From a virus (Duplodnaviria > Caudoviricetes), in IMG/VR virus record IMGVR_UViG_3300031566_000041, positions 1-55,442 of that record: DNA of 55,442 bases. One strand, written 5' to 3'. Under the pieces are notes generated by a model that was given only the letters and a program-made list of their open reading frames with translations, was not told where the DNA came from and did no database searches. A program made the position numbers and the translations under genes. Below, in pieces: positions 3,219-38,605 of the stretch. Within the stretch, counting starts at the first letter, position 1; every line of letters starts with the position of its first letter.

Positions 3219-4004
3219 ATGGGACACATCAGGCTAGGGAACCTTCCTCGCACTCGGAAATGGCAACAGGTCGTTGCCCTTATAGAGGGCGGAGCGGGAA
3301 CAACCCAGATTGCTAACGCAACCATTACGGCAGCGGAGCAAGGGTTGAACTTAGCGGCCGAAGACAAGGGCCTGGTCGAAACCATCTGGCTTCTTACGCA
3401 ATTGCCCTTGGCCGCAAAGAGCAACAACTTTGCCGATGCTCTTCGAAATGCAGGTCTAGATGTTTCCGATTCTCCAACCCTGCTGGAGGTAGTCGGCGCG
3501 TTCTCTGATGCAGTCGACCACCGGCTGGCCAACAATGGCGGACGGACGGATCTGGGTGAGATGGCCCAGATGGCTGCGTCCGAAACGATGACGCAGTTGA
3601 TCGGGAGCCGGACACAGAATCTTTTCGGCACAACCCCAGACGACGTCAAGAGCGCCTTCTCCACCCTTGCCACAAACAAGCAGTTCAGCATCTTTGCCAG
3701 GGATTTTTTCGCCCGCCTGACAGACAAGTGTCTTGATTATTTTGTCAGCAGAGCCGTTGCTCACAATGTGGGGGAGGGCCGACGTTTTCGGACACTGGCC
3801 CAGCAGGGTGAATTCACCAAGGCTCTCGGGACCCATAGTTATGAGGCCTCGAGAATCGTCGAGGAGTTTTCCGGGGGCTGGTTCTCAAAGACCAACTGGG
3901 AGAATAAAGGCATATCGAGAAAGGATGCCGCCGGTTTCGCGCACGTTGCCATGAAGAAGATCGTGGCGGAACTCAAGGAAGGAGCGCAAACCGATGACAA
4001 ATGA
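3219..4004 (+). CDS. Helical partner protein of QueC-like enzyme (QatB-like position; begins MGH-)
   Basis: 261-aa ORF overlapping the downstream QueC-like gene by 11 nt; Gly2. The functional call is by context only. Confidence 0.6.
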   Translation: MGHIRLGNLPRTRKWQQVVALIEGGAGTTQIANATITAAEQGLNLAAEDKGLVETIWLLTQLPLAAKSNNFADALRNAGLDVSDSPTLLEVVGAFSDAVDHRLANNGGRTDLGEMAQMAASETMTQLIGSRTQNLFGTTPDDVKSAFSTLATNKQFSIFARDFFARLTDKCLDYFVSRAVAHNVGEGRRFRTLAQQGEFTKALGTHSYEASRIVEEFSGGWFSKTNWENKGISRKDAAGFAHVAMKKIVAELKEGAQTDDK

Positions 4005-6771: not shown

Positions 6772-7356
6772 ATGGGCGACAGAAATCTCTATCCCGGAAT
6801 CGAGGAGTACGCGGTGAAATTGATCCAGGTCAAGGCCTGCCAGTTGATTGATCAGCCGGGGTTCTGCCGGGCGGACCGGAAGGACATCGAGCAGGACCTG
6901 ATGCTCGACTTGCTCACGCGCCTGCCCAAGTACGATCCCGACATCGCGGAGCGGACGACCTTCATCAGCCGGATCGTCAACTGCCGGGTCGCATCGCTCA
7001 TTGCCGCGCGCAAGGCCGGCAACCGCGATTGGCGCATGAACGCCTTTTCGCTGAACGCGAACGATCCGGCCTGCGAGGAGCCGACCGAGCGGCAGGAGCG
7101 AATCAGCGAAGGCGAATACCTGATGAGGGTCGGTCTGATCAACCGACCGCCCGAGGATCAGCGCGACCTGGTCATGGACATGGCGCGGGCGTTTGAACTC
7201 CTGCCGGAGAATTTCCGCGACCTGTGCGAGCGGCTCAAGACCCAAACCGTTTCCGAGATTGCCATCGAGCTAGGCATTCCCCGAAGCACGATTTATGAGG
7301 CGATCCAGAAGCTTAGAGAGATATTCGAGGCGGCGGGCCTGAAAAATTATCTCTGA
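6772..7356 (+). CDS. Phage-encoded ECF-like sigma-70 family factor
   Basis: Region-2-like DRKDIEQDLMLDLL..YDP..TFISRIV; region-4 HTH LPENFRDLC..TVSEIAIELGIPRSTIYEAIQKLR. Confidence 0.85.
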   Translation: MGDRNLYPGIEEYAVKLIQVKACQLIDQPGFCRADRKDIEQDLMLDLLTRLPKYDPDIAERTTFISRIVNCRVASLIAARKAGNRDWRMNAFSLNANDPACEEPTERQERISEGEYLMRVGLINRPPEDQRDLVMDMARAFELLPENFRDLCERLKTQTVSEIAIELGIPRSTIYEAIQKLREIFEAAGLKNYL

Positions 7357-20398: not shown

Positions 20399-21925
20399 AT
20401 GGCGGGCCTAAAACCCAGGGACCGCCGTCTGGCGGAAACGCTGATGAACCCGGTCCTGTGGGGCCAGGCTTACCTCAAGAACCGAGACGAGACGCCCCGG
20501 AGCTACTGGCCGCACCAGGCCGAGGACCTGCTCTGCGAGGTCAGGAACATCATCCACCTGGATGGCCGGGACGCGGGCAAGAGCGTGAACATCACCACCG
20601 ACGCGCTCCACTTCGCCTTCATCACCACCGGCGGCCAGGGCCTGATCGCCGCGCCTCACCAGGGCCATCTCGATACCCTGATCGAGGAGATCGAGTTCCA
20701 ACTGGAATCCAACCCGGACCTGATGGACAGCATCGCCATCAGCAAGTACGGCAAGCCCAAGATTCACCGCAAGCCCTACTTCCGGCTGGAGTTCGCCAAC
20801 GGCTCGATCCTTTACTTCCGACCGGCGGGGGCTTACGGCGACTCGTTCCGCTCGCTGCACGTGGACCGGGTCTGGGTTGACGAGGGCGCGTGGCTCTCCG
20901 AGAAAGCGTGGAAGGCCCTGCGCCAGTGCCTCAAGGCCAACGGCAAGCTGCGGATTTACTCGACTCCCAACGGTCTGCGCAACACCACCTATTACCGCCT
21001 CACATCCTCGGACCAGTTCAAGGTCTTCCGCTGGCCCTCGTGGTTGAATCCGGCTTGGAGCGAAGAGCGCGAGTCGGAGCTAATCGAATTCTATGGAGGC
21101 AAGGACACCGCGGGCTGGCAGCATGAGGTCGCGGGTGAACACGGCAAGCCCTCCTACGGCGCGTTCAACATCGAGTACCTGACCCTGTGCCGGCAGGAGC
21201 TATTGGAATACCAGAAGGTGGTGATTACTGGCGACGAGCTAAAGAACTGCGAGACCGAGGATGACTCCTGCGACCGGCTGGAGATGCTCCTCAATCTCAT
21301 GCCGCAGACCGGCACGTTCTGGATCGGCGGCGACCTGGGCTATACCAACGACCCCACCGAGCTCGTGGTCTTCCGGGAGAGCGAAGCCGGCGAGCGGTCG
21401 GTGCTGAAGCTCATTCTGCGCGTCCACATGGAGCACGTGACCTATCCTCACATCGCCCAGGCCATTGCTCTGCTCGAACGATACTTCTCGCCGGTCGGGA
21501 TCGGCGTGGACAACGGCGGCAACGGCCTGGCTGTGGTCCAGGAGCTATTGACGCTCGACAAGTACAAGCCGCTCCAGTTGGAGGGACGGTTGGCCGGGTA
21601 TGACTTCGGCGGAATGACGACCCTGGCGGTGCGGGACGGCCATGAGGTCAAGAAGCGGACCAAGGAGCTGATGACGAGCCTCATCAACGGCGCGCTCCAG
21701 AGGAAGCAACTCATCTTCCCAGCCGATGATATGGAGATCGAGGACCAGTTCACCACGCACACCTACACACTGCGGGACGGCAAGGTGATCTACGGGAAGG
21801 GCAACGACCACATCGTTGACGCGGTGCGTTGCGCCATACTCGCCCGCGAGCAGGGCAACTTGAACGGGGCCGGCCAGGAGACGGTCCACTTGGTGCCGCT
21901 GATGACGGAGCCGGTGTTTATTTAG
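20399..21925 (+). CDS. terL: Terminase large subunit
   Basis: HQ motif, GRDAGKS Walker A, VWVDEG Walker B, STPNG, nuclease domain IGGDLG..DHIVDA. Confidence 0.92.
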   Translation: MAGLKPRDRRLAETLMNPVLWGQAYLKNRDETPRSYWPHQAEDLLCEVRNIIHLDGRDAGKSVNITTDALHFAFITTGGQGLIAAPHQGHLDTLIEEIEFQLESNPDLMDSIAISKYGKPKIHRKPYFRLEFANGSILYFRPAGAYGDSFRSLHVDRVWVDEGAWLSEKAWKALRQCLKANGKLRIYSTPNGLRNTTYYRLTSSDQFKVFRWPSWLNPAWSEERESELIEFYGGKDTAGWQHEVAGEHGKPSYGAFNIEYLTLCRQELLEYQKVVITGDELKNCETEDDSCDRLEMLLNLMPQTGTFWIGGDLGYTNDPTELVVFRESEAGERSVLKLILRVHMEHVTYPHIAQAIALLERYFSPVGIGVDNGGNGLAVVQELLTLDKYKPLQLEGRLAGYDFGGMTTLAVRDGHEVKKRTKELMTSLINGALQRKQLIFPADDMEIEDQFTTHTYTLRDGKVIYGKGNDHIVDAVRCAILAREQGNLNGAGQETVHLVPLMTEPVFI

Positions 21926-22042: not shown

Positions 22043-23539
22043 GTGGAAGGGAAAGGACAAATCACGAACGAAGACCTCCTGGCGCAGGGGGTGATTATCG
22101 CGCCGCTGGCATCGGCTGCGGCCCTGGACCCGGCGGTGTTCGCCAAGGTCTCGGCGAACGAGGCCATTCCCGTGACCTGGGAAGACCGGGCGCGGAGGGC
22201 CTGGGAGTATTACGTTGAGGAGCCGCTGGTCAAAAACTGCGTGAACTCCTGGCGAACCTTCGCCGTGGGCGACGAGATTAAAGTCGCCAGCGATGACGCG
22301 GGCGTGAAGGAGGCCGCCAGCGAACTGGCTTACAAGATTAGCGTCTCGGCCTTCGTGAAGGCCATGATCCTGCAACTGCTGGTCAAGGGCGACGCCATCG
22401 GGTTCAAGGGCTACACCAAGGACGGCAAGGACATCGAGGAGGTCGTGTGCGTGAACCCGATCTCGGTCAAGGTCCGGTACGAGAACGGCGAACTGGTCGA
22501 GGCCAAGCAATACCCCGAGGACGCGCCGAGCGCGGGAGACGCCCTGAATCTGCCGGTCAAACAGGTGCTCCACCTCAAATGGGACGCCCCGCCCTTCTCG
22601 CCGCGCGGCAACTCACTGGTGCTCCCCGCGTTCCAGTCCATCGAACTCCTGCGCGACTATCGCCGGGCCGAACAAGCCATTGCCAAGCGCTGGGCCACTC
22701 CCTTCCGGCTGCTCAAGGTCGGCGGCGCTTATGGCCAGAAAATGGTCATGCCCGACCAGACCATGCTGGAGCAGGTCCGGGATATGGTGAACAAGATGGA
22801 CCTGAAGAGCGGGCTGGTGGTCCCATTCTACGTCACGGTCGAGACCCACGGGACCGAAGGCCAAGTCCTCAACGTCGAGGACAAGGTCAAGGAGGTCAAG
22901 GAAGACATCATGGTCGCGCTCGGGCTGTCGCGCACGCTCATCACGGGCGACGGCCCCAACTTCGCCACGGCCTCGGTGAGCCTGCAGAAGATGCTGGTCA
23001 TGATCCGGGAGATCAAGCAGGCCGCCCGCGACATCCTGGCCTGGGTCTTTGACGACTGGATGGAACTCAAGGGGCATAAGGACAAGACCCTCCAGTTTCT
23101 GTTCAACGATCTTGACCCCAGCGACGCGGTGGACGTGAAGCGCCTGCTCATCGAACTCTATGACCGCAAGCTCATCAGCCGGGCGAGCCTGCAGCTGAAG
23201 ATGGACCTCGACCCGGACATCGAGGCGGCCAATAGGGAGAGCGAGAAGAAGTCGGTGGACCTGCTGGATGAGAAGCAGATCAAGCCCATCGTGGACATGG
23301 TCATGGCCGGGATCATGGGCGTGGAGGTCGCGCAGAAGATGCTCGGCCTGGACCCGGCGGCGAACAAGGCGAGCGCATCGGTGGAGGCCGACTATGCCCG
23401 GGCAATCGGTGACGAGGTCTGCGACTCGTGCGCTCACTTCGACGAGGAGAAGAACCATTGCCGGGCGCGGAAATCCGAGACAACTTTTTCTTCACCAGCC
23501 TGCCGCTTCTTCGACGCCCGCATTGCCCCGGCAAGCTGA
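22043..23539 (+). CDS. Portal protein with C-terminal four-Cys motif
   Basis: Position after TerL, ~500 aa, LLVKGDA, VLHLK..SPRGNSL, NFATA motifs. Confidence 0.85.
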   Translation: MEGKGQITNEDLLAQGVIIAPLASAAALDPAVFAKVSANEAIPVTWEDRARRAWEYYVEEPLVKNCVNSWRTFAVGDEIKVASDDAGVKEAASELAYKISVSAFVKAMILQLLVKGDAIGFKGYTKDGKDIEEVVCVNPISVKVRYENGELVEAKQYPEDAPSAGDALNLPVKQVLHLKWDAPPFSPRGNSLVLPAFQSIELLRDYRRAEQAIAKRWATPFRLLKVGGAYGQKMVMPDQTMLEQVRDMVNKMDLKSGLVVPFYVTVETHGTEGQVLNVEDKVKEVKEDIMVALGLSRTLITGDGPNFATASVSLQKMLVMIREIKQAARDILAWVFDDWMELKGHKDKTLQFLFNDLDPSDAVDVKRLLIELYDRKLISRASLQLKMDLDPDIEAANRESEKKSVDLLDEKQIKPIVDMVMAGIMGVEVAQKMLGLDPAANKASASVEADYARAIGDEVCDSCAHFDEEKNHCRARKSETTFSSPACRFFDARIAPAS

Positions 23540-23551
23540 TCGGAGTCGTCC

Positions 23552-26500
23552 GTGCTGTCCGCCCTCGCCATTAAGACACCCCTGACCCAGGCCGAGGCCA
23601 TCCGCCAGGCCACGGCGCGGAGCGTCAAAGCCAGGAACCTATACACCGAGCAGGTGGCGAGCGATCTCTCCGGCATCCTGGCCGACGCCGAGGACGAGGT
23701 CCGCAAGGTCATCCTGCATTACAAGACCCTTGGTTCGCTCCCGGACAACAAGCTCGCGGCGGTCCAGGGCTTGAAGAAGCTTGAAGCCGACCTCCAGCAG
23801 ATCACCAGCACGCTCCGCAAGGAGCAGACGCTCCGGTTCAAGAAGGCGACGAAGGCTTCCTTCCGCCAGGGCATCTATCGCGGTATTGACGAGTTCGCTT
23901 CGGCCCAGCTGCCCTTTTACCGCGACCTCAAGCCCGAGGGCATTGATAAGCTCTCCACCAAGGTCTTTACGCTGGTGGACACCGACGCGCTCGACTTCAT
24001 GGCCAACTACAACCTGGTCCTGGCCGGCGACGTGAACCGCGAGTTGGCGGACGGGATCAAGCGCGTGGTCTTCTCCGGGGTCGCCACGGGCAAGGGCGTG
24101 GAGGACATTGTCCGCGACCTGGGCCACGTGGTGAAAGACCCGGAGTCCTTCCGGCACGCGGGATCGAAGGTGTTCAGCAAGGCCCAGTACCGGATGGAAC
24201 TCATCGCCCGCACCGAGGTGCTCCGCGCCCACAACCAGGGCCGGATCAAGTTCCACAAACACGTGGGCGTGAAGAAGCTCGAATGGATGACAATGGACGA
24301 TGAGCGGGTGTGTCCGGTGTGCGGCCCGCTCGACGGCAAGGTCTTTTTGATTGACCGCTTCCCCCAGCAGCCCGCGCACCCCAACTGCCGGTGCACCAAC
24401 ATCGTGGCCTGGCCCATCAACATCTGCGGGAGCGAACTCATCGCCGTGGCCGCGGACGAACCAGCCGCGTGCATCATCCCGCCCGAGGGAATCGAGGGCC
24501 AGGCGCTCGCCAAGGCCCGCGAGGACTCCAAGCTCAAGGCCGCGTTCGAGAAAGGCGAGATCGGCGACCTCCAAGCCCTCACCGCCAAGCAACTCCAGAC
24601 TCTGGCCAAGCAGAACGGTGTGTCCATCGCCCGCACCAAGGCCGACTTCATCAAGCTCTTGGATCAGGCCGAGCCGGGCATTGAACACGGGGACCTCTCC
24701 GGCCAGGCGCTCCAGGCCAAGATCAAGGAATACAAGATCGGCCTGCTGCGCACCAAGGAGGACCTGGTCAAGCTCCTGGCCGAGAAGCAGGCCGCGCTCA
24801 AGCAGGCCCAGCAGATAACCGACCAGCTGAAGAAGGTTCCCGCGCCAGGCGGTCTCCAGGGTCTCTCGGTGAACGACCTCAAGGACATCGCCAAGGACAA
24901 GGGCGTTTCGCTCAACATGACCAAGCAGGACGTGATCGAACTCCTGGACGAGATCGAGCCGGGCGTGGACCACTCCGGCCTCCAGGGACAAGACCTCATC
25001 GCCGCCAAAGAGAAGCATTCCATCGGCCCGCTCAAAAACAAGCAGCAACTAGTCAAAGCCATCGAGAAGTCCGCCGGCCAGGACCTGGCCGAGAAGACCA
25101 AGCAGGAAGCGCTCGACTCGGCGCAGAAGGAAAAGGTCAAGAAGGCCAAGGAGACCATCGAGCAGGCGGCCTCCAAGGTGATCGTGCCCAAGTCGCCCGC
25201 TGGCTATAACGATTTCCTCGCGGCGGCCAAGGAAGCCGAATCCGCGCTCGCCCAGGGTGCGGGCTTGCCGCAGGAGATGCTGGAGTCCAACGCCAAGGAG
25301 CTCGCGCTCAAGAAGAAGCTCTTCCAGGACCAGGTCGCGGCCATGAAATCGGGCGACCTCAAGACCCTGGCCAAGGACACCAAGCTCAAGCACTGGCAGT
25401 GGGCGAACAAGGACGAGATGGTCACGCTGTTCACCGAGACCGACCCGGCCAAGGTGGAGGCGGCCAAGGCCAGCATCGAAGCCAAGCACGGGGCCTGGGC
25501 CGAGAAGCACGGCGGCAAGAAAGCTCCGACCGCGCCCAGTCCGCCAGTTAAAACTCGTCCAGCGCCTGCGCCTTCTCCTCCCGAGCCGTCCCCACCAGAG
25601 CCGCCGGTCTTCACCAAGAAGGGATCGGAGTTCGAGGACGCGGACCAGGCTTGGGAGAAAAAGGGCAAGCCCGGCAACTTCAAGCCCGCAGGCAAGGCCG
25701 AGGTCGGCGGCGCGCACACCAAGGAGTTCTGGGTAGACGAGAGCGGGGCCAAGTGGCTGTTCAAGCCGATTGAAAAATCCGGCGACGAGTTCATCGCCCA
25801 GGGCGAGGAGGCGGCCTACCAGATCGGGCGGCTGATTGACCCGGACGCCGTCGAAGTGCGGACCATCAACTTGAACGGCAAGCTCGGCTCGATCCAGAAG
25901 TGGCATACCGATCTTCAGGCCAAGGGCGATTTCTCGGACGTGGACCCGACCCAGCTGACGACCACCGAACTGGAACAGATTCAACGCGAGCACGTGGTGG
26001 ACTGGCTCGTCTCCAACCATGATGGCCACTCGAAGCAGTTCCTGCGGGCGCGGAGCGGCAAGGTCTACGGCATTGACAAGGGGCAACTCTTCAAGCACCT
26101 GGGGGAGGACAAGCTCTCCATTGACTACCACCCTAACGGCAAGTTCGGCGAGCAGGAGCCTTACTACAACACGGTCTTCCGCGCGGTCAAGCAGGGCAAG
26201 GTCAAGGCCGATCCCTCGGTCACGCTCCGCTACATCCGTGAGGTCGAAAAGATTGCAGACGATGACTACCTGGCGCTACTCAAGCCCTATGCCGATGGCC
26301 GCTTCGGTAAAAACGAGGCCAAGAAAAAAGCTTTCCTCGATCTGGCGCTGGAGCGCAAGCGCAACCTGCGCCGGGATTTTGAGGGGTTCTATGCCGACGT
26401 GCTGGGCAAGAAGGGCTTTCGCTTCGAGGACGCGGCTGCGGCCCTCCCCAAGAAAGGCCGCCTCGGTCCAGCCGAGGAAAAGCTCATCGAGGAAGTGAGG

Positions 26501-28138
26501 AAGCTTGGCTGGCAGGGCAAGGTCCTGCCCTTTGACGAGGATGACATCGAGGACCAGAACGCGCTCATCTTCGTGGAGACGGCCAAGGGCAAAGAGCGGA
26601 CGGTCATCAAAATGAAGGTCCGGCCCGAGGCCGACGCGAAAATCCTGGAGGCGCTTAAAAAAGCCGGGATTGATCCCGCCTCGGCCAAGGTGGGCGACAC
26701 TCTGTCCGAGGACCAGTTCGCGGACGACATCCTGGCTGCGGCCAAGACCATCAACCACCACAAGGACGACAAGAAGTACAACCAGGACAAGTTGAAAAAG
26801 GCCAAGGGGCACGAGAAGGCTCTCCAGAAGTTGGCCAAGTCCAGCGACCCGGACGTGCAGGGCATGGCCAACGAGTACCTGGCTTGGCTCGCCAGGATCG
26901 AGGAGGCGGAAAGCGCGAAGAAGCCGATCAAGGACATGTTCGGGGCTTACACGAAGAAGCACGCATCCCCTCGCCCGGAGAAGTCTAAGGACGTGGGCTT
27001 CAAGGTTACCCGCTCGAAGGTGCTGCACGAGAAACGCGAACTGAAGAATGGCGACCTGGTCGTGGTGAAGGAAGACGCAGATAACTCGGCCATGTTCAAG
27101 GGCCACAGTTTAAAGGCAGGAGAGCAATTCGAGGTGGAATTCGGTGATGGTGTAAGGGCCGTGTACCGCCCCTGGTCGGAGAAGAATCTCTATGCCCAGC
27201 GCGGCGAGTTCGAGATGGTGCTGCCGGATAAACCGGACGCCAAGAGCATCGAGCGGGCAATGGGGCACATGGAAACCCTGGGCCTCAAGTCCACCGCCGC
27301 GACTGCCGAGGACTCGGAACTGCTCTACCTCCATAAGCAAGCTTACCTCTCCAAGGCGGAAAAAGAGTCCGCCTACAAGAAGATGATCGCGGACCTTGAC
27401 CGGCGCTCGGCCAGCAAGGAGGTCCGCGTCCGGGAGATGCGGGCCTTCTGGGAGAAGCGGCTGGGCGCAAAGGACCTGACCCGTATGCCGGGCTACGATC
27501 CCATTGGCGAGTATCAGCTGGCGTTCAAGCAACCGGGCCAGGGCGCGGGCTATCGGCATCAGTACCGGTTCGACCTCTCGGACGAGGACCTGGAGAAGGA
27601 GATGAAGGGCTACGCGCTCCATCACCACCTCACCAACGGTGAGAGCGTGTCCTCGTTCATTGAAAAGGTGGTCGAGCAAAACGGCGCGGCGGTGAGCACC
27701 ATCGAGAAGCTGCGGGCCGGGGTCCCGGTGGGCGGCATGTCGCCGGAGGAGGACATGAAAACCGGCGGCGCGAGCTACTTCTTCACGCGAATCAAGAAGG
27801 TCCCGGACAAAGGCCCGGACGAGACCGGGCTGTACTTCAAGAAGCGGCTCCTGCGCCGAATGGACGCTATCAGCTACGACCACGACGCTTATGGCAAGGT
27901 GGTGGACGATTACGTGACGCAGCATCGCGGCAGCACGCCCGAGGACTGGAAGAAATTCGCTCGCAAGAGTGGAAACGAGACCATCTTCAAATACTCGGTG
28001 ACAGTACTGGACAACATCGAGGTCATCGTGGCCGGAAGCCAGAACGAGCGGAAGAAGATCTTGGAGTCCTTCCGCAAGAAGGGCATCGTGAAACTTCCCG
28101 ACGGCCGCAAGGTCGAGGACATTGTGATTGCGAGGTGA
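23552..28138 (+). CDS. MuF / SPP1 gp7-like minor head protein with extended cargo domains (HeH-like repeats, kinase-like, ART-like)
   Basis: IARTEVLRAHN..DERVCPVC..P.HPNCRC MuF signature; later KWLFKP, EEAAY, DWLVSNHDGH, IDKG kinase motifs. Confidence 0.85.
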   Translation: MLSALAIKTPLTQAEAIRQATARSVKARNLYTEQVASDLSGILADAEDEVRKVILHYKTLGSLPDNKLAAVQGLKKLEADLQQITSTLRKEQTLRFKKATKASFRQGIYRGIDEFASAQLPFYRDLKPEGIDKLSTKVFTLVDTDALDFMANYNLVLAGDVNRELADGIKRVVFSGVATGKGVEDIVRDLGHVVKDPESFRHAGSKVFSKAQYRMELIARTEVLRAHNQGRIKFHKHVGVKKLEWMTMDDERVCPVCGPLDGKVFLIDRFPQQPAHPNCRCTNIVAWPINICGSELIAVAADEPAACIIPPEGIEGQALAKAREDSKLKAAFEKGEIGDLQALTAKQLQTLAKQNGVSIARTKADFIKLLDQAEPGIEHGDLSGQALQAKIKEYKIGLLRTKEDLVKLLAEKQAALKQAQQITDQLKKVPAPGGLQGLSVNDLKDIAKDKGVSLNMTKQDVIELLDEIEPGVDHSGLQGQDLIAAKEKHSIGPLKNKQQLVKAIEKSAGQDLAEKTKQEALDSAQKEKVKKAKETIEQAASKVIVPKSPAGYNDFLAAAKEAESALAQGAGLPQEMLESNAKELALKKKLFQDQVAAMKSGDLKTLAKDTKLKHWQWANKDEMVTLFTETDPAKVEAAKASIEAKHGAWAEKHGGKKAPTAPSPPVKTRPAPAPSPPEPSPPEPPVFTKKGSEFEDADQAWEKKGKPGNFKPAGKAEVGGAHTKEFWVDESGAKWLFKPIEKSGDEFIAQGEEAAYQIGRLIDPDAVEVRTINLNGKLGSIQKWHTDLQAKGDFSDVDPTQLTTTELEQIQREHVVDWLVSNHDGHSKQFLRARSGKVYGIDKGQLFKHLGEDKLSIDYHPNGKFGEQEPYYNTVFRAVKQGKVKADPSVTLRYIREVEKIADDDYLALLKPYADGRFGKNEAKKKAFLDLALERKRNLRRDFEGFYADVLGKKGFRFEDAAAALPKKGRLGPAEEKLIEEVRKLGWQGKVLPFDEDDIEDQNALIFVETAKGKERTVIKMKVRPEADAKILEALKKAGIDPASAKVGDTLSEDQFADDILAAAKTINHHKDDKKYNQDKLKKAKGHEKALQKLAKSSDPDVQGMANEYLAWLARIEEAESAKKPIKDMFGAYTKKHASPRPEKSKDVGFKVTRSKVLHEKRELKNGDLVVVKEDADNSAMFKGHSLKAGEQFEVEFGDGVRAVYRPWSEKNLYAQRGEFEMVLPDKPDAKSIERAMGHMETLGLKSTAATAEDSELLYLHKQAYLSKAEKESAYKKMIADLDRRSASKEVRVREMRAFWEKRLGAKDLTRMPGYDPIGEYQLAFKQPGQGAGYRHQYRFDLSDEDLEKEMKGYALHHHLTNGESVSSFIEKVVEQNGAAVSTIEKLRAGVPVGGMSPEEDMKTGGASYFFTRIKKVPDKGPDETGLYFKKRLLRRMDAISYDHDAYGKVVDDYVTQHRGSTPEDWKKFARKSGNETIFKYSVTVLDNIEVIVAGSQNERKKILESFRKKGIVKLPDGRKVEDIVIAR

Positions 28139-28611: not shown

Positions 28612-28943
28612 AGCTCCGCTACATGATTGAGTACGCGCTCCGCGACCGTCTCCGCAATCCCCATTACGAACCCATCGGCGTCTGGGTCCAGGGGCCCGGT
28701 CCCGGCCTCGACCTCGTGATCGAATACCTCCCCGGCAACCCCGAGGCCCAGGAAGAGGCCGAGTGGATCATCAACCGGCTGGTGGAGAACGGGATCAAGA
28801 ACTTACCGGACGATTTCCTCGAGTACCATCGGACAACGCTCTCTCCCTATCGCGGGATGGGGGGGAGCGAAATTGAGGTTGACGAATTTCCCTCCTCGGA
28901 GGCCTGCGCCAAAGTTATCATCGCCAAGTTCACCGCTTCATAA
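28608..28943 (+). CDS. Hypothetical protein, candidate immunity protein 2
   Basis: ATG 28608 overlapping the previous stop, GGAGG RBS. Confidence 0.6.
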   Translation: MKLRYMIEYALRDRLRNPHYEPIGVWVQGPGPGLDLVIEYLPGNPEAQEEAEWIINRLVENGIKNLPDDFLEYHRTTLSPYRGMGGSEIEVDEFPSSEACAKVIIAKFTAS

Positions 28944-28954
28944 TTTTTTTCAAC

Positions 28955-28992
28955 TTTTTTCCGACACTTTTCACTTTCCGCCGGTATATATC
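28955..28992 (+). promoter_or_regulatory. Putative phage sigma-dependent promoter (copy 6)
   Basis: TTTTTTCCGACA-cttttcactttccgcc-GGTATATATC upstream of the head operon. Confidence 0.75.
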
Positions 28993-29066
28993 CCGCAGGA
29001 GCTTGTCATGGGCCCGGGCGATGGACTTGGCCCGCGTCCGAGACCAAGGCTCCCGCGAGGATGTGA

Positions 29067-32000
29067 ATGGAGCTTTTTGCTACTGATTACGAACGGTTGG
29101 CGTTTCTGCTGGAGACCGACGCGGCCTTGGAGTTGGACTTCGAGGCGCTGGAGGCTTATGCGCGTGAAGAAAGTCAACCCGAACTTCCCCCGGATAAGCG
29201 CCCCAAGTACATCACCAACTACATCGGCTCGAAGCAGAAGCTGGTGGACTGGATTTGGAAGCATACCCCGGAGGGCGTGGAGTCGGCGCTGGACGCCTTC
29301 TCCGGCTCGGCGGTCGTGGCCTACATGTACAAGACCAAGGGCCTCAAGGTCATGGCCAACGACCGGCTGCGCTATTGCTACCACGCGGCGCGGGCGATCA
29401 TCGAGAACGACAAGGTCCGGCTCTCGGACGACGAGCTTACGGCGCTGCTTGCGGACAACCCCAAGGCCGGGACGTTCGTCCGGGACAATTTCAAGGGCAT
29501 ATTCTTCGCCAAGGGCGTCCACGGCCTGATTGATAACATCAGGGCCAACGCGGACAAGCTCGATGGCTTCAAGAAGGACATCGCGCTCTTCGCTCTGGGC
29601 AAGACCTGCATGTCGGGCAAGGGCGGATTCGGGCATTTCTCGTCGTCCACGCGCTACGGCAAGCGCGAGGATACGCCCGAGGAGTTCAAGGAGCGGTTCA
29701 GCAAGAACGTGGCGCGGATTAACGCGCTGGTGTTCGACAACGGTGAGGAGTGCAAGGCGTTTCGGAAGGACGTGAACGAACTCCTGCCGAGCATCAAAGG
29801 CGACCTAGTTTACTTCGACCCGCCTTACGCGACCGAATTCTCCACCACCAACTATGAGAAATCCTACCACTTTGTCGAGGGCCTGATGAACTATTGGGAG
29901 GGCCTCACCCTGGTCAAGGACTCGAAGACCAAGCATTACGAGACCGACCACAAGACGGTGACCAAGGCCAACGCCAATGAGTTCTTCGAGACCTTCCTGG
30001 GCAACGCGAAGCACATCCCGCACTGGTTGATCTCTTACCGGGATCACGCCTACCCGAACGAGCATGACATGAAGAAGATTATCGGCTCGCTCGGCCGCGA
30101 GTCGGCCATGCGTTCGCACGACCACCATTACTCGATCACCTCGCAGCACGGTGACGCCTCGCACGCCAAGGAGCGGCTGTTCATCTGCAAGCGGGGCAAG
30201 GAAGAACAGAAGGCCGCGGCCTCGCTGGAGGCTTATGCAGAGGACGAGTTGCAGACCCAGGCAATCTGGGACGAGACCCCGAATGAAATCCGCTTCCGCG
30301 TGCGTGACCCGGAGGAGTTCGAGAAGGGCAGCTTCCGGCGGAAGGGGCTGGAGGGGGTCGAGGGCGTCGCCATCATCATGGGCCGGCTCAAGAAAGAACA
30401 CGTCCAGGAGGGGCACGACCCCAAGGCGATGGTCCTTCAGGCCTACCGCTTCGCCAAGAAGACCGAGGACAACCCGAACGGCTGGACCCTGGACAAGGCC
30501 AAGGAGTGGGTGAAGAAGCACGAGTCGGAGAGCGCAGCGGAGGCGGCCCTACGGATCGAGGACAACATGCAGGCCCTGGCCGACGCGCCGCTGGGTGAAG
30601 CTCTCGATCTGCTCACCTGCCAGGCAGGGCAAAACGATCCGGTCCGGGTCACCGGGTACATGGGTAGCAAGTACCTGATGATGGGCTGGATTGAGCGGCA
30701 CGTGCCCAAGGGCGCGAAGACCATCCTGGACGCCTTTTCCGGCGGTGCGAACGTGGCCTATAACTTCAAGCGCAAGGGCTACAAGGTCATGGCCAACGAC
30801 CTGCTCCGGTATCCTTATCACCTGGCCCGCGCGGTGGTCGAGAACTCGCACGACAAGCTCAGCGATGAGGACATCGAGATGCTGCTCGCTCCCAACCCGG
30901 GGGCGGGCACGTTCATCCTGGACCACTTCCACGGCTACTACTACACCAAGCCCATTCTGCAATGGCTTGACCAGGTGTGGTCGAACATCCAGAAGCTCTC
31001 GGGCTACAAGAAGGACTTGGCGCTCGCCGCGTTGGGCACCGCAGTCAAGGCCAAGAGCGCGTTCGGCCAGTTCTCGCGCTCGAAGATGACGAAGCGGGCC
31101 GGCCACGAAGTGCACCAGCCCACAGACGTGGACGAGACACAGGCCAGCGCAAGCCTTAAGGAATCGCAGCTGGTCAACCTGCCGCTCTCTCGGCTGGTTG
31201 AATCCTTCAAGCGCTCGATCAAGCAACTCAACAACCTGGTGTTTGACAACGGCCAGGAGTGCAAGGCCTTCAATTTGAACGCGGTGGAAGCGATCCGGCG
31301 CTTCAGCGCGGACGCGCTTTACCTCGACCCGCCTTACGTCACCGAGTTCGGCATCAACGACTACGAAGACTCGCTCCACTTCGTGGAAGGGTTGATGACC
31401 CGCTGGGCCGACAAAAAGCTCAACGCCAACCCCCGGCGCAACTACCCGTCCCGCACCCGTTTTAATAAGGAATCAATCCGCAAGCTGATGGAGACGATGG
31501 CGGCGGACGCCCGGGGCAAGTACGGCACGGTGCTGCTCTCCTACCGGGACCGGGCCTTCCCCCGCGAGAACGAGATCAAGGAAATCCTCGGCGACCACTT
31601 CGGCCAGGTCCAGGTGAGCGGCATGGACGTGGTCTACACCATTGCCAAGAACATTGGGCGGGAAGGCCAGTATGCGAAGGAGCTTCTGTTCGTGGCCTCG
31701 AAGGCGAGAAGCGCGGCCCGGTCCAAGGGGTCGCTATCGGCGGCCGCGTGCCACACCTCGGTCCCGGTGGATATCCAGGTCAATGCATCAGAGGGCATGT
31801 TCACCGAGGCGCTCGATCTTTCCAAGCAGGCCGGAGACCCGCAGTTCACCTTCATTCTCTGCCGGGTCGGGACCAACAAGAACGGGGACCATTTCACTGC
31901 CGAGGAACTGGCCGCACGGTACATGACGGCGGTTAACAAGAAGATTGACCTCAAGCACTCGCAGGACTTCACCGACATCGTGGGCGGGATCGTGGCCGCC

Positions 32001-32969
32001 GATTACCTGGAGGACGAGAACGGCGGCCGGGTGGAGTGCGTGGGCGAGCTTTACGCCACGGACAGCCAGAACGCGCAGCTGGCTTACAAGCTGATGAAGC
32101 GCGGGATCATCACCCAGGTTTCGATGGAGTGCGATTACGATGAAGGCGAGTGCTCGATCTGCGGGAAAAAGGTGAAGAACAAGAGCGACTACTGCGTTCA
32201 CCTGCGCAAGTACAAGGGCGGCTCATTCCAGGGCAAGCCGGTGTTCGAGATTCTACGTGGAGTCACCTTCACCGGCCTCGGGCTTTTAGACCGCAAGGGT
32301 GCGGACGAGAACGCGAGGATAACCCAGGTTGCGGCGGTTGCTGAAACGGAAATTTCAAACCAGGACAAAGGAGGTCCACACATGGACGAGAACGAGAAGC
32401 AGGAAGAGAGGGCGGCCGAAGCCGCCAAGAAGAAAAAGGACGACGGCGAGGCCGGCGCTCCGGCGGACGACAAGACCCGGATCAAGGAGTTGGAGAAGGA
32501 GAACGCGGACCTGAAGAAACAGGTCTCCACCCTCCAGAAGCGGGTCGAGGAATTGGAGGCCGAGCAGCAGGCCGCGTCCAACCGCTCGCGGGCGCAAAAG
32601 CTCCTGCGCAAGATCGAGAAGCAGGGCATGGCGTTCGAGACGGACGAGGACCGCGAGGCCGAGTTCAAGCGGCTGGCCTTGATGTCGGACGAGGCGTTTG
32701 CCGCGACCGAGGCGGCCTACGAGCGGATGATCAAGGCCAGGTCCGAAGGCGTGAAGAAGGAGGACAAGGCCGAGCCTCCCCCGAAGAAGGAGCAGTCCAA
32801 AGCGGACAAGGCGGACGAGGAACCGGCCATGCGCAGCGACGCCGGGGTGCGGCCCAAGGACGTGGACGACCACAAGGCGACCCTGGAAGACAAGCTGAAG
32901 GCCGGGTTCATGGTCGCCTATCGGCACAGGGTAGCCACGGCAACCGGCGAGCGGGCCGAGGCCAATTAA
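29067..32969 (+). CDS. Fusion: two D12/Dam-class N6-adenine DNA methyltransferase domains + prohead protease + scaffold
   Basis: MTase1 YIGSK/DAFSGS/MAND/YFDPPY; MTase2 YMGSK/DAFSGG/MAND/YLDPPY; protease-like NKNGD.F..EL, IDLKH, VSMEC..CSICG..CVH, TGLGLL..GAD..A; C-terminal coiled coil; located just before the decoration and capsid genes. Confidence 0.85.
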   Translation: MELFATDYERLAFLLETDAALELDFEALEAYAREESQPELPPDKRPKYITNYIGSKQKLVDWIWKHTPEGVESALDAFSGSAVVAYMYKTKGLKVMANDRLRYCYHAARAIIENDKVRLSDDELTALLADNPKAGTFVRDNFKGIFFAKGVHGLIDNIRANADKLDGFKKDIALFALGKTCMSGKGGFGHFSSSTRYGKREDTPEEFKERFSKNVARINALVFDNGEECKAFRKDVNELLPSIKGDLVYFDPPYATEFSTTNYEKSYHFVEGLMNYWEGLTLVKDSKTKHYETDHKTVTKANANEFFETFLGNAKHIPHWLISYRDHAYPNEHDMKKIIGSLGRESAMRSHDHHYSITSQHGDASHAKERLFICKRGKEEQKAAASLEAYAEDELQTQAIWDETPNEIRFRVRDPEEFEKGSFRRKGLEGVEGVAIIMGRLKKEHVQEGHDPKAMVLQAYRFAKKTEDNPNGWTLDKAKEWVKKHESESAAEAALRIEDNMQALADAPLGEALDLLTCQAGQNDPVRVTGYMGSKYLMMGWIERHVPKGAKTILDAFSGGANVAYNFKRKGYKVMANDLLRYPYHLARAVVENSHDKLSDEDIEMLLAPNPGAGTFILDHFHGYYYTKPILQWLDQVWSNIQKLSGYKKDLALAALGTAVKAKSAFGQFSRSKMTKRAGHEVHQPTDVDETQASASLKESQLVNLPLSRLVESFKRSIKQLNNLVFDNGQECKAFNLNAVEAIRRFSADALYLDPPYVTEFGINDYEDSLHFVEGLMTRWADKKLNANPRRNYPSRTRFNKESIRKLMETMAADARGKYGTVLLSYRDRAFPRENEIKEILGDHFGQVQVSGMDVVYTIAKNIGREGQYAKELLFVASKARSAARSKGSLSAAACHTSVPVDIQVNASEGMFTEALDLSKQAGDPQFTFILCRVGTNKNGDHFTAEELAARYMTAVNKKIDLKHSQDFTDIVGGIVAADYLEDENGGRVECVGELYATDSQNAQLAYKLMKRGIITQVSMECDYDEGECSICGKKVKNKSDYCVHLRKYKGGSFQGKPVFEILRGVTFTGLGLLDRKGADENARITQVAAVAETEISNQDKGGPHMDENEKQEERAAEAAKKKKDDGEAGAPADDKTRIKELEKENADLKKQVSTLQKRVEELEAEQQAASNRSRAQKLLRKIEKQGMAFETDEDREAEFKRLALMSDEAFAATEAAYERMIKARSEGVKKEDKAEPPPKKEQSKADKADEEPAMRSDAGVRPKDVDDHKATLEDKLKAGFMVAYRHRVATATGERAEAN
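32382..32969 (+). CDS. Nested in-frame scaffolding protein (internal start)
   Basis: AAAGGAGGT 6 nt before in-frame ATG 32382 (MDENEKQ); highly charged coiled-coil product. Confidence 0.65.
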   Translation: MDENEKQEERAAEAAKKKKDDGEAGAPADDKTRIKELEKENADLKKQVSTLQKRVEELEAEQQAASNRSRAQKLLRKIEKQGMAFETDEDREAEFKRLALMSDEAFAATEAAYERMIKARSEGVKKEDKAEPPPKKEQSKADKADEEPAMRSDAGVRPKDVDDHKATLEDKLKAGFMVAYRHRVATATGERAEAN

Positions 32970-32984: not shown

Positions 32985-33347
32985 ATGAGTTTCATCAATC
33001 CCAATCATCGGGGCCTCGCCTACGGCGACGGCTACATGCAGGGCGCGGGAAGCAAGGGCAAGGTGGTGAAGATCGCGGGCAGCGATTTGTTCGCGGTGAA
33101 CACCGACCCGACCGTGAAGTCCTTCGGGATACTCATCAAGGACTACAAGGACGGCGAGATGCCGGGCATCTACTGCATGGGCGGAGTTTACGAGACCGAC
33201 GTGTTCGAGGGGACCATCGTCCCCGGCAATGACCTCAAGGTGTCGGCCAACGGCAAGCTCATCGCGGGCGTGCTCGCTGGCGAGGAGGTCATCGCCCGGG
33301 CCATCGCTCTCTCGGGCGGCGTGCTCAAGTTCAAGCTGCTGATCTAA
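32985..33347 (+). CDS. Head decoration/cement protein
   Basis: 120-aa Gly-rich beta protein between the scaffold and capsid genes. Confidence 0.65.
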   Translation: MSFINPNHRGLAYGDGYMQGAGSKGKVVKIAGSDLFAVNTDPTVKSFGILIKDYKDGEMPGIYCMGGVYETDVFEGTIVPGNDLKVSANGKLIAGVLAGEEVIARAIALSGGVLKFKLLI

Positions 33348-33360
33348 GGAGGAAGCGAAT

Positions 33361-34224
33361 ATGGAGATGAATCAAATGAACGTGCACAGCCAGGAGTACA
33401 TGCAGAGCATGGCCCGGCTCATGAGCGAGGCGCTGGAGTCGCCGGAGGGACTGCATGCGCTGGCCGCCGCCATCGCCGCGCCCATCGAGCAGGAGATCAA
33501 GCGCAAGGAGATTTCCTCGCTCCTGCTCACGAGCCACACCCTGCCCAAGGGCGAGCGGCCGATCTACCAGAAGAAGCCGCGCGTGAAGGCCTACTGGATC
33601 AGCAAGGAGGGCGAGGCTCAAGAGAGCGAACTCGGCCAAGACGAGATCGAGTTCCCCACGCACCGCATCCACTCCGCGCCGATGGTCGACATCGCGGTCT
33701 TGAAGAACGGCAACATCGGGACGCTCACCGACATGCAGACCGCTGCCGCCGACGAGATCAGGAAGGAGATCGACAAGCGCACCCTCACCGTGATCACGGC
33801 GTCTGTCCCGGCGGAGAACACGGTCGAGGTCACGGGCGACACGCTCACCGAGGAGGCGCTCAACGAGGCCGTCTCGATCATCGAGGACCTGGAGCTTTCG
33901 GTGAAGTACATCGTGATGCGGGGCCGGCGCTTCAACGACATGCGCGGCTGGGACTTGGACCCGCAGACCAAGCTCGAACTGCGCGCCAAGGGCGTGATCA
34001 AGAACTACGGCACCGGCGGCATCTTGCTCACCGCGTCCGCGCCGCTGAACGAAATCCTGATCATCCCGGACGAGGAGATCGGCAAGCTGCCGGTGCGCGA
34101 GACGCTCAAGACCGAGTCCATCGAGCAGAAGACGAAGTTCAAGACCGGCTGGCTGATTTGGTCGGAGCAGGGCCAGGGCATCACCCGGCCGGAAATCCTG
34201 GCCAAGATCAAGCTGCTCGGATAA
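33361..34224 (+). CDS. Major capsid protein (HK97 fold)
   Basis: Position, strong RBS, 287 aa, AYWISKEGE E-loop-like segment, C-terminal G.GITRPE..AKI pattern. Confidence 0.85.
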   Translation: MEMNQMNVHSQEYMQSMARLMSEALESPEGLHALAAAIAAPIEQEIKRKEISSLLLTSHTLPKGERPIYQKKPRVKAYWISKEGEAQESELGQDEIEFPTHRIHSAPMVDIAVLKNGNIGTLTDMQTAAADEIRKEIDKRTLTVITASVPAENTVEVTGDTLTEEALNEAVSIIEDLELSVKYIVMRGRRFNDMRGWDLDPQTKLELRAKGVIKNYGTGGILLTASAPLNEILIIPDEEIGKLPVRETLKTESIEQKTKFKTGWLIWSEQGQGITRPEILAKIKLLG

Positions 34225-36745: not shown

Positions 36746-38605
36746 ATGGGCAGCTATCTTTCGCCAGGCATCTATACCCGCGAGATCGATTTCAGCTATT
36801 ACGTGAAGCAGATTTCGACCTCGTCCTGCGGCATGATCGGAGTGGCCGAACGCGGTCCGATCAACAAGGCGGTCCTCGTCACCAGCTGGGAGCAGTTCGT
36901 TCGCAAGTTCGGCTCGTACTACAAGTACGGCTACCTGGGTTATGCGGCCCGGGCGTTCTTCGACAACGGCGGTCAGGTGCTCTACGTAAACCGGATCGCC
37001 CACCTCACCGATCCCACGGACCGAAACAGCCTCACCGCTAAGAAGGCCAACGTCACGCTCAAGAACCCGTTGGGAGCGGCGGCCACTCTGGTCACCGGCA
37101 CACCGGGCCTTGACGAGATTCACTGGCAAGCCAAAACGCCGGGCGCGGCCGGCAACGATATCAGGATCGAGTTGGCGACCTGGCCCGTGCCCAATCCCAC
37201 GTGCTACATCGTGGTTTATGATCGATCCATCAACGTCCAGTTAGCCACCGATGAATCCGGGGCTTCGATCACCACCGCCGACCAGGTCGTCGCCGCCATT
37301 GCCAACAGCCCCGAGGCCTCGGCGCTGGTGGAGGCTACCACCACCGAGCGGGGCCTGGTGCCTCCCGCGCCCTCGGCCAACTTTACCGGCGGCGTGGACG
37401 GCGTGGACCGGCTGCGGATTGACGCGATTGACGAGGGAACCTGGGGCCAGAACATCGCGGTCGTGATTGAGCCGGGCACGCTCGATCCAGACAATAACTT
37501 CAACCTGGTGGTCCGCTACAAGAACCAGGTGGTCGAGGTGTACAAGGACCTCTCGATGGATGAGAGCGCCGCGAACCACGTCGAGTTGATGATCAATCAG
37601 CGGTCGGATTTCATCACCGTGGCGGACTTGAACCAGGACTCGGGGTCGGCAGCGGACCGCCCAACGGTGGGGCAGTTCTCGCTCCAAGGCGGGGACGATG
37701 GACTTGCCTGTATCGGCGATGTTGACTGCACCGGCGATCCATCCCAGCACACCGGCTTCTATGCCTTTGACGAGATCGACGCCTTGAACATCCTGATGGT
37801 CCCTGGCGTCACCACCGCGACCGTCATCAATGGCGGCATCACCTACGCCGAGAACCGCAAAGACCTGATCTACCTCGCGGATGCGCCCATTCTCCTGGAG
37901 CCGCTCGAAGCGGTGGACTTCCGCAAGGGCCAGGGCATGTACAACCATGCCGCGTTCAACTCGTCCTATGCCGCGCTCTACTACCCCTGGCTCGAGATCA
38001 TGGACCCCATGACCGGCAAGAAAATGCTCGTGCCGCCCACGGGCGCGGTCGCGGGATGTTACGCCCGCAACGACGAGAAGACCTACGTCTGGTATGCGCC
38101 CGCGGGCATTGACCGGGGCCGTGTGTTCAACACTCTGTCTGTGGCCTACAAGACCAGCCGGGGCGAACGGGACGTGCTCTACCCCGAGGGCGTGAACGTG
38201 ATCGCGGTCTTCCCGGATAGCGGGATCAATATCTGGGGCCAGAAGACCCTGCAGAGCCAGCCCTCGGCTCTGGACCGGGTTAACGTCCGCCGGCTCATGC
38301 TCTACATGGAGGAGGCCATCGCTGAGTCCGCCCGGTTCGTGGTGTTCGAGCCGAACAACCCGCAGACCTGGCGGGCGCTCATTCGGCTGATCAATCCCTT
38401 CCTGCAGGACATCAAGGACAAGGGCGGCCTGTACGACTTCGCGGTCCAGTGCGACGAGGAGACCAACACCCCGGCGGTGATTGACCGAAACGAAATGGTG
38501 GCGCGGATTTTCGTCAAGCCCACCAAGACGGCGGAGTTCATCGAGTTGAACTTCGTGCTCACCACCACTGGGGCCGACTTCAAGGAAATCTTCACCACCG
38601 CCTAA
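36746..38605 (+). CDS. Contractile tail sheath protein
   Basis: YLSPGIYTRE, YAALYYPW, WYAPAG, IWGQKTL, VNVRRL, VFEPN, PTKTAEFI. Confidence 0.95.
   Translation: MGSYLSPGIYTREIDFSYYVKQISTSSCGMIGVAERGPINKAVLVTSWEQFVRKFGSYYKYGYLGYAARAFFDNGGQVLYVNRIAHLTDPTDRNSLTAKKANVTLKNPLGAAATLVTGTPGLDEIHWQAKTPGAAGNDIRIELATWPVPNPTCYIVVYDRSINVQLATDESGASITTADQVVAAIANSPEASALVEATTTERGLVPPAPSANFTGGVDGVDRLRIDAIDEGTWGQNIAVVIEPGTLDPDNNFNLVVRYKNQVVEVYKDLSMDESAANHVELMINQRSDFITVADLNQDSGSAADRPTVGQFSLQGGDDGLACIGDVDCTGDPSQHTGFYAFDEIDALNILMVPGVTTATVINGGITYAENRKDLIYLADAPILLEPLEAVDFRKGQGMYNHAAFNSSYAALYYPWLEIMDPMTGKKMLVPPTGAVAGCYARNDEKTYVWYAPAGIDRGRVFNTLSVAYKTSRGERDVLYPEGVNVIAVFPDSGINIWGQKTLQSQPSALDRVNVRRLMLYMEEAIAESARFVVFEPNNPQTWRALIRLINPFLQDIKDKGGLYDFAVQCDEETNTPAVIDRNEMVARIFVKPTKTAEFIELNFVLTTTGADFKEIFTTA

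Follow-up and report, generated by a model that had tools for sequence, protein, structure and literature searches.

Why would a phage build DNA methyltransferases into the protein that assembles and matures its head? The question is raised by a gene of 1300 amino acids (aa) in the virus record IMGVR_UViG_3300031566_000041 of IMG/VR, all 55,442 bases of which were analysed and are called the window below. An earlier note on this DNA, made from the letters alone, had described the gene as two DNA adenine methyltransferases (MTases) fused to a capsid maturation protease and a coiled-coil scaffold, and had proposed that the MTases are loaded into the procapsid. Our computational analysis showed the architecture of the fusion, its conservation, the fold of its protease and a nested start within the gene; on these results we base a proposal for how the MTases might travel with the phage DNA. 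As the note had stated, the open reading frame (ORF) is uninterrupted. From the N to the C terminus it encodes a D12-class MTase, a small beta domain, a second D12-class MTase, a prohead protease and a coiled-coil scaffold, and its features lie in the window as follows (SD, Shine-Dalgarno; AF2, AlphaFold2; pLDDT, predicted local distance difference test; ipSAE, interaction prediction score from aligned errors).

29067-32969, + strand: full-length ORF, 1300 aa, one open frame with an ATG start and a weak SD site (-5.9 kcal/mol)
29202-30200, + strand: MTase 1 (aa 46-378), D12-class N6-adenine DNA MTase, PF02086 at 96.2 bits
30261-30533, + strand: small beta domain (aa 399-489), an optional module, AF2 core pLDDT ~90
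30639-31721, + strand: MTase 2 (aa 525-885), D12-class, PF02086 at 76.4 bits
31815-32342, + strand: prohead protease domain (aa 917-1092), model pLDDT 81.4
32367-32375, + strand: internal SD site AAAGGAGGT, seven bases before ATG 32382, -12.3 kcal/mol
32382-32969, + strand: in-frame nested gene for the scaffold (aa 1106-1300, 195 aa), with the same C-terminus as the full-length protein
32475-32576, + strand: coiled-coil segment of the scaffold (aa 1137-1170), a conserved heptad-like block in the alignment
32880-32933, + strand: conserved helix of the C-terminus (aa 1272-1289), with a predicted contact to the N-arm of the capsid protein (conservation; ipSAE 0.70)

Methyltransferase domains and the module between them

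Both of the motif sets that the earlier note had called complete were located, and both halves of the MTase region, each scored alone, passed the curated cut-off of PF02086 (22 bits); the whole protein matched this family at E 7.8e-48. MTase 1 carries YIGSK at residues 52-56, DAFSG at 76-80 and DPPY at 251-254, and MTase 2 carries YMGSK at 531-535, DAFSG at 555-559 and DPPY at 754-757. In an alignment of 53 diverse sequences, the columns of DAFSG, the S-adenosylmethionine (SAM)-binding motif, and of DPPY, the catalytic motif, were at least 90% conserved in both halves. Because both domains pass PF02086 and keep these two motifs, both look active. The model of the orthodox Dam subfamily, TIGR00571, was reached by neither half (33.7 and 23.3 bits against a cut-off of 114.85), and by their sequences the domains are D12-class MTases, not Dam proper. 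In sequence searches against solved structures, MTase 1 matched nothing at E<=0.001, and the profile of the full protein matched coiled coils only. Family scans of the fusion protein found D12 as the only MTase family, and no helicase family.

The two MTases are 39% identical to each other. All of the relatives with a single MTase (51/51) were of the MTase-1 type, with a median identity of 79% to MTase 1 versus 37% to MTase 2, which argues that MTase 1 is the core of the family and that the beta domain and MTase 2 are an insertion present in part of it.

In the AF2 model, residues 401-485 of the small domain that had been seen between the MTases (aa 399-489) form a compact beta fold. In BFVD, a set of predicted viral structures, its three best matches were to phage proteins 414-472 aa long, among them one with the name prohead protease (prob 1.0, root-mean-square deviation (rmsd) 2.7-3.1 over ~85 columns). 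Against the PDB, Foldseek gave nothing clear for this domain, the best rows being small heat-shock-like sandwiches at E 0.1; a sequence search against solved structures gave no match, and in the ESM Atlas there were leads only, small hypothetical proteins of viruses scoring 0.90. An alignment to this domain of 95 aa or more was obtained for 66 of the 110 relatives with the full two-MTase architecture, and the two-MTase forms of ~1180 aa lack it. Moreover, in the MTase-less relatives P0199 and P0201 the protease is immediately preceded by one or two beta domains. Judged by this distribution, the beta domain is a mobile module.

The modules on the N-terminal side of the protease thus vary (none, a beta domain, one MTase, two MTases, extra insertions) in a manner that resembles variable internal or 'inner body' proteins, and this could be taken to mean that the MTase domains contribute bulk, either structural or DNA-binding, as an inner core, a size-determining filler or DNA-condensing internal proteins, with catalysis irrelevant. 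We consider such a role extremely unlikely. The SAM-binding and DPPY motifs are near-invariant in both domains across the 53 diverse sequences, which argues for selection on catalysis, and the MTase-less relatives use a similar protease-scaffold.

Nested scaffold gene, protease fold and predicted capsid docking

The starts within the gene were scanned in 73 aligned ORFs of at least 780 aa. Every in-frame ATG, GTG and TTG was considered, the 15 bases upstream of each were paired with the anti-SD sequence, and a pairing energy of <= -6 kcal/mol was used as the threshold for an SD site. The column of residue 1106 held a start codon in 70 of the 73 ORFs, and a start together with an SD site in 69 of them. 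It was the best-conserved internal start column, ahead even of the ORF's own start (63/68). In a separate set of species-representative genomes, the nested start with a strong SD site was found in 64 of 69 loci. The 24-nt upstream contexts in the scan comprised only 28 distinct sequences, two of which had no start at the column and two of which had a start three codons away. The nucleotides AGGAG(G) were kept across the relatives even as the residues that they encode changed (EGG, TGG, SGG, KGG, EGD, QGD, KGD, EGV), and the nested start codon itself varied among ATG, GTG and TTG. Nucleotides that are kept over residues that vary would be expected of a translation signal rather than of a protein constraint.

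The SD energies in the window fall into two classes. The nested start (-12.3 kcal/mol) stands with the capsid protein (-12.0) and the tail sheath (-12.9), and the start of the full-length protein (-5.9) belongs to a weaker class with the portal (-8.3) and MuF (-6.1) proteins. The conserved internal SD site and start, standing over residues that vary, argue for a nested protease/scaffold gene of the lambda C/Nu3 type, and two products are predicted from the one frame, the 195-aa scaffold in abundance and the full-length protein in smaller amounts. The coiled-coil scaffold of the earlier note agrees with the Pfam matches of this C-terminal part, which were of the bZIP/coiled-coil type only and all below threshold.

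Three other candidates for internal starts were rejected. An SD-like site before M274 (58/72) is a by-product of the constant residues VEGLM, and there it is the nucleotides that vary. At the boundary of MTase 2 and the protease, 31 of the 39 ORFs in one subgroup with a single MTase have a start with an SD site, but the window has TCG at this place and its sister loci CTG, and the spacing is long. For an internal start near residues 509-510, which would give an MTase2-protease-scaffold product, there was no conserved start column.

The prohead-protease-like character of the domain upstream of the nested start was borne out by its predicted structure. Residues 890-1110 were modelled from a 53-row alignment (pLDDT 81.4), and the model was aligned with VIA-align, independently of Foldseek, against all 48,161 representative PDB chains. 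The top match was T4 gp21 (5jbl_A; Z 10.9, rmsd 2.9, 129 residues aligned), followed at ranks 2-4 by the proteases of varicella-zoster virus (1vzv_A, Z 10.8), human cytomegalovirus (Z 8.0) and Kaposi's sarcoma-associated herpesvirus (Z 6.9); after these four came unrelated MCE domains (Z <=6.6). Foldseek also ranked the gp21/assemblin fold first (E 6e-3, prob 0.99). As modelled, the protease domain has the fold of T4 gp21 and the herpesvirus assemblins. By sequence, phrog_18299, a 'head maturation protease', matched this domain at E 1.1e-4, and homologous domains were found in distant relatives, among them gp19 of Bacillus phage G and gp17 of Rhodococcus phage Finch, where the protease is N-terminal and the gene, as here, lies between the portal and capsid genes. 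A sequence search of the C-terminal 411 aa against solved structures returned coiled coils and zinc-finger noise only.

H964 and S1019, 55 residues apart, were invariant in the 53 sequences and are candidate catalytic residues. Directly after the candidate serine a cluster of invariant Cys and His residues is inserted (C1022, C1029, C1032, C1043 and H1045; aa 1022-1045, positions 32130-32201, + strand). This cluster looks like a zinc knuckle, and its matches to Pfam zf-C2H2 were sub-threshold only.

The nested scaffold ends in a conserved C-terminal element, RSDAGVRP.DVDD.K.SLEDKLK.GFMAAYR.RV. When the capsid protein was modelled in complex with scaffold aa 140-195, the ipSAE was 0.70, against 0.00 for the best of three controls. 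The model passed the mark used for docking, which 58 of 80 solved complexes had reached and 2 of 110 mismatched pairs; these rates apply only roughly here, as the modelling used our own alignments. The docking runs agreed in at least 78% of contacts, and the pLDDT of the partner was at least 58. In the predicted interface, residues 8-48 and 119-127 of the capsid protein meet residues 1272-1289 of the full-length protein. The C-terminus of the scaffold is thus predicted to bind the N-arm of the capsid protein; the docking pass may reflect likeness to solved scaffold-coat complexes.

Conservation, distribution and phage context

Is the long frame a property of the phage family, or could it be an artefact that joined separate MTase and protease genes during assembly or annotation? 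A word-indexed protein search gave 446 proteins at E<=0.001 among 8000 scored candidates. Of the best 120 of these 446, 110 had two MTases, the protease and the scaffold, and 7, truncated or partial, lacked a 150-aa alignment to the protease. In IMG/VR, 91 of 95 candidate stretches were relatives, in 79 loci, and in 75 of the 79 the protease domain lay in an open frame that also held the MTase or MTases. Twenty of these frames were 1160-1343 aa long with two MTases, 51 were of ~800 aa with one, and the rest were cut or broken. Among species-representative genomes, 88 of 100 stretches were relatives, again in 79 loci, and 69 of the 79 held protease and MTase in one frame; these 69 comprised complete ORFs with two DPPY motifs (32) or one (31), five loci cut by contig ends and one remnant. 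The fusion was kept down to ~41-50% identity, in its one- and two-MTase forms, in prophages of many phyla. The same unbroken frame occurs in the complete chromosomes of Syntrophus buswellii DM-2, Desulfosarcina alkanivorans PL12 and D. widdelii PP31, and an identical copy of the fusion was found on an independent contig of a metagenome-assembled genome (MAG; L099). An artefact is refuted by the frame's recurrence in viral loci, in complete chromosomes of cultured bacteria and on the independent MAG contig, and its probability is virtually nil; no support for it was found, and a few relatives are broken or truncated (e.g., L072, L079, L105, L113, L156 and L158). Of the two outcomes that the earlier note had left to a homolog search, a conserved fusion or an assembly artefact, the first is what these counts gave.

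A full HMMER scan with the protease domain gave 1231 cluster representatives at E<=0.001, 45 of them at E<=1e-30. Among ten close relatives sampled, eight had PF02086 on the N-terminal side of the protease and two were without any known family. P0134 and P0189 (416 aa) are plain, MTase-less protease-scaffold proteins; the search for shorter relatives otherwise gave mostly fragments on short contigs. In PHROGs the single-MTase form is phrog_27806, named only 'DNA methyltransferase'.

Several further variants were observed. An additional, unassigned insertion of ~110-250 aa lies between the last MTase and the protease in P0112, P0117-P0119, P0100, P0103, P0105, P0226 and P0229. D. alkanivorans PL12 holds both the two-MTase (1288 aa) and the single-MTase (802 aa) form in different prophages (L154 and L123), and one Bryobacterales MAG chromosome holds four copies (L095, L105, L106 and L130). 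The prophage head region of S. buswellii DM-2 (L085) shares 90.9-98.6% DNA identity, along 7-9.9 kb, with loci assigned to other phyla (L086, L087, L089-L092, L110, L140, L150 and L159). The assemblies concerned include those of Phycisphaerae, Nitrospiraceae, Anaerolinea, Ca. Ozemobacter, Zixibacteria and Desulfatitalea, some of them in megabase contigs. These copies reflect either contaminated bins or assemblies, or an unusually wide distribution of the phage.

The IMG/VR record is rated 98% complete and has 60.7% G+C. The features around the fusion gene that matter here are as follows.

817-2277, minus strand: serine integrase
6772-7356: phage-encoded sigma factor
20399-21925: large terminase, upstream of the fusion gene
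22043-23539, + strand: portal protein, phrog_2739 at E 2.1e-59
23552-28138, + strand: minor head protein with a MuF/SPP1 gp7 domain, 1528 aa, PF04233 at 63.1 bits, TIGR01641, phrog_6577
32985-33347, + strand: ORF of 120 aa between the fusion gene and the capsid gene, no family match
33361-34224, + strand: major capsid protein, 287 aa, predicted partner of the scaffold, phrog_2522 at E 6.6e-84
36746-38605: sheath of the contractile tail

The window also encodes replication genes (exonuclease, helicase and primase), a tape measure and a baseplate, and by its serine integrase and contractile tail genes the phage is a temperate myovirus. The gene order is large terminase, portal, MuF protein, two small ORFs, fusion gene, 120-aa ORF and major capsid protein. 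The earlier note had made the fusion the first gene of the head operon, which does not hold, because five genes of this module precede it. As the fusion gene lies between the portal and MuF genes and the capsid gene, it is at the position expected of a protease/scaffold gene. In the 75 viral loci, the capsid protein was found downstream in 70, MuF upstream in 50 and the portal upstream in 45, and none was on the wrong side. The shortfalls were contig ends, and the fusion lay between portal/MuF and the capsid gene in every locus long enough. The other ORFs of the head module had no match to protease or scaffold families in searches by sequence only, the small neighbours not having been folded. 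An AT-rich intergenic gap of 123 bp (28944-29066) lies directly upstream of the fusion gene, with a single weak sigma70-like match beside it (28915-28944, 9/12); from these two features, a separate transcript start for the fusion gene is possible.

The neighbours deserve a brief description. In the 1528-aa protein, the MuF/SPP1-gp7 domain occupies aa 168-284 and is followed by a C-terminal extension of ~1240 aa (phrog_6577, without a named function). This extension varies among the relatives, the C-terminal part being found in 30 of 75 related loci versus 50 of 75 for the MuF part, and the protein looks like a candidate second capsid-delivered 'polyvalent' effector, encoded near the MTase-protease gene. 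Its matches to 'head maturation protease' PHROGs were rejected as a sign of a protease, as they are located on its MuF domain. The 120-aa ORF was found downstream of the fusion in 71 of the 75 viral loci, always between the fusion and the capsid gene. Its SD site is strong (-11.7 kcal/mol), and for this reason it is probably an abundant head component, e.g., a decoration protein or a second scaffold-like protein. At some distance, positions 3994-6084 (+ strand) encode a 696-aa protein with a match to QueC-like proteins of queuosine biosynthesis (phrog_1550, E 3.6e-19). It possibly belongs to a pathway for 7-deazaguanine modification of DNA; if so, the phage would have a second way of modifying DNA.

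Possible fate of the methyltransferases and known systems

How might these parts work together? We propose that a nested prohead protease/scaffold gene gained DNA MTases at its N-terminus. The abundant 195-aa scaffold would be made from ATG 32382 and the rarer 1300-aa protein from the weak site at 29067, and the common C-terminal helix would dock both on the N-arm of the major capsid protein. Because its C-terminus is common with that of the scaffold, the full-length protein would co-assemble with the scaffold in the procapsid, in small numbers, and would bring in the protease and the two MTases. Entry of the full-length protein into procapsids is probable in our judgement, and to this extent the loading proposed by the earlier note gains from the conserved fusion, the nested scaffold and the predicted docking on the capsid. 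The later steps, together with the stoichiometry, are those that we infer, namely cleavage, retention, ejection and protection. After closure of the shell, the protease would remove the scaffold and probably cut the MTases free. In the fate that we prefer, a few to a few dozen MTase copies would stay in the head as internal proteins; at infection they would be ejected together with the DNA and, as an anti-restriction cargo of the P1 DarB kind, would methylate the genome before the restriction enzymes of the host could act on it. Alternatively, the MTases might be active only before assembly, or be degraded. The whole chain, from the nested gene to ejected protective MTases, is plausible and is offered tentatively; that the MTases are ejected and protect the DNA, taken by itself and by analogy with DarB, is possible but somewhat doubtful.

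The main rival to this proposal places the work of the MTases outside the capsid. They could act late in the cytoplasm, on replicating or concatemeric DNA, in which case capsid entry would be incidental, the MTases would be degraded with the scaffold, and the fusion would only couple the supply of MTase to late head-gene expression, as for orphan MTases like P1 Dmt and T4 Dam. Because the protease is expected to gain activity only on assembly, the protein could work on DNA while still intact. The conserved catalytic motifs, the lack in family scans of a helicase partner such as that of DarB, and the presumably limited room in the capsid would all suit this explanation, and methylation by P1 Dmt is needed for efficient progeny production (PMC11437467). 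We nevertheless judge it unlikely. Co-expression needs no covalent fusion, yet the fusion is kept to ~41-50% identity in many phyla; the weak SD site of the full-length protein (-5.9 kcal/mol) would give few copies, which is odd for an enzyme that modifies many replicating genomes; and the C-terminus, with its conserved helix and predicted docking, appears built for shell entry.

The MTases might also methylate DNA at the portal vertex or on the inner wall of the shell, either during threading or once the genome is packaged, with SAM supplied via pores of the procapsid. All packaged genomes would thus carry the mark, independently of host methylation. A table in PMC3224144 lists the portal gpB of lambda as a partner of the protease gpC. 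The capsid protein is a predicted anchor of the full-length protein, and two MTases of different type (39% identical) would fit two motifs or two strands. We regard methylation inside the capsid as decidedly unlikely, as packaging motors far outpace MTase turnover and base flipping in condensed DNA is improbable; the usual processing of scaffold and protease takes place before the DNA enters or while it does so, and no pointer to portal binding was found in the sequence.

Several points weigh against our own proposal of an ejected, protective cargo. Methyl transfer is slow compared with DNA entry and restriction, so protection by an ejected MTase is kinetically uncertain, and in the family scans there was no helicase or translocase that, as in DarB, could drive the MTase along the incoming DNA. 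A 55-kb genome in a capsid with a 287-aa coat protein would leave little room for an 80-kDa cargo, and the protease might simply degrade the MTases. Since MTase-less relatives exist, the MTase is not needed for assembly. As for the protease, the threshold of Peptidase_S78 (PF04586) was missed (16.0 bits versus 21, E 0.014), and the catalytic role of H964 and S1019 was proposed from invariance alone. Finally, the ORFs behind the start-conservation counts are not independent, many of the single-MTase loci being near-identical.

On a wider view, temperate myoviruses of many host phyla would carry MTases wired to the protease in every capsid and, whether these enter with the genome or act at the portal, methylation would precede restriction. 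This is a possibility that we hold to be rather doubtful. If true, it would make the protection of the phage independent of the methylation state of its previous host, and it could help explain the near-identical phage copies in assemblies of very different phyla. For annotation, the family implies that hundreds of database proteins called 'DNA adenine methylase' are a prohead protease and scaffold with a hidden nested gene. The family is present in cultured, non-pathogenic bacteria with complete genomes, including Desulfosarcina, Syntrophus, Ectothiorhodospira (E. shaposhnikovii DSM 243) and Sulfidibacter (S. corallicola M133). Because it is found in cultured lysogens, virion proteomics and methylome tests are practical.

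In the tandem MTases of M.FokI, each domain methylates one strand of an asymmetric site. The fusion is similar in having two D12-class MTase domains in one polypeptide; as MTase 2 is an insertion in part of the family, the pair did not arise as a FokI-like unit. With the T4 gp21 system the fusion has the protease fold in common. The internal proteins of T4 (IPI*, Alt) undergo cleavage by the prohead protease, remain in the head and are injected, and a short N-terminal targeting peptide marks them as cargo on separate proteins, whereas here the cargo is within the protease polypeptide itself. The roles of Alt and IPI are given in PMC5512222.

Nested protease/scaffold genes are known from lambda (C/Nu3), herpes simplex virus 1 (HSV-1; UL26/UL26.5) and Haloferax virus HFTV1 (gp17/gp17.5) (bioRxiv 10.64898/2026.09.13.751334). 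Like these, the gene described here is predicted to yield a minor full-length protease and an abundant co-terminal scaffold from one frame with an internal start, and it encodes a protease of the assemblin/gp21 fold from between the portal and capsid protein genes. Unlike these, it has 900 extra residues before the protease, made up of the two MTases and the beta domain; in the excerpt of the same preprint, no N-terminal enzyme cargo is described for the nested genes of lambda, HSV-1 and HFTV1.

The functional model that we favour is P1 DarB. The Dar proteins of P1, including the MTase-helicase DarB (~45 copies), are packaged in an order linked to morphogenesis and are co-ejected (PMC12810830). 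The loading of DarB is tied to head morphogenesis and involves processing by the prohead protease, and DarB protects the incoming DNA from restriction (PMC12810830, PMC5512222). It combines an EcoKI/TaqI-like MTase and a superfamily 2 helicase with an N-terminal LPD36 domain (PMC5512222). The likeness is a functional analogy, and the fusion is not a member of the DarB family. DarB is a free-standing protein of ~2000 aa or more that is loaded via DarA/Hdf, whereas the fusion has D12 MTases, covalent targeting and, in the family scans, no helicase. The earlier note knew of no characterised example of MTases loaded into a procapsid; for the general idea this does not stand, as DarB is packaged, but it does stand for a D12 MTase fused to a protease-scaffold, as far as our searches reached.

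Enzymatic domains carried on a head-assembly component, packaged and delivered, are also known as polyvalent or MuF-fused effectors (Iyer et al. 2017, PMC5512222). Their carrier differs from that of the present fusion, being MuF or portal rather than the protease-scaffold, and the MuF gene of the window (23552-28138) is of that kind. In engineered P22, enzymes placed N-terminal to the C-terminal coat-binding part of the scaffold were encapsulated in vivo (PMC9962691). These fusions have the same topology as the protein described here, but they are man-made and have no protease and no DNA delivery, whereas ours is natural and conserved; it would, if our proposal is true, be a natural counterpart of the engineered P22 scaffold-fusion nanoreactors.

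Literature searches of PubMed Central texts under Creative Commons licences and of bioRxiv found no paper on the fusion of a DNA MTase with a prohead protease or scaffold, although supplements or subscription journals may mention one. Anti-restriction enzymes that are packaged, effectors joined to head proteins and nested scaffold genes were known already; what appears to be new, within the reach of these searches, is that DNA MTases are covalently built into a prohead protease-scaffold. The nested start in the MTase-protease gene adds to what the earlier note had seen. If the proposal is true, anti-restriction enzymes would have a second natural and mechanistically different route of delivery with phage DNA, in which the cargo is attached covalently to the protease-scaffold, in contrast to the adaptor proteins of the P1 Dar system and the short targeting peptides of T4.

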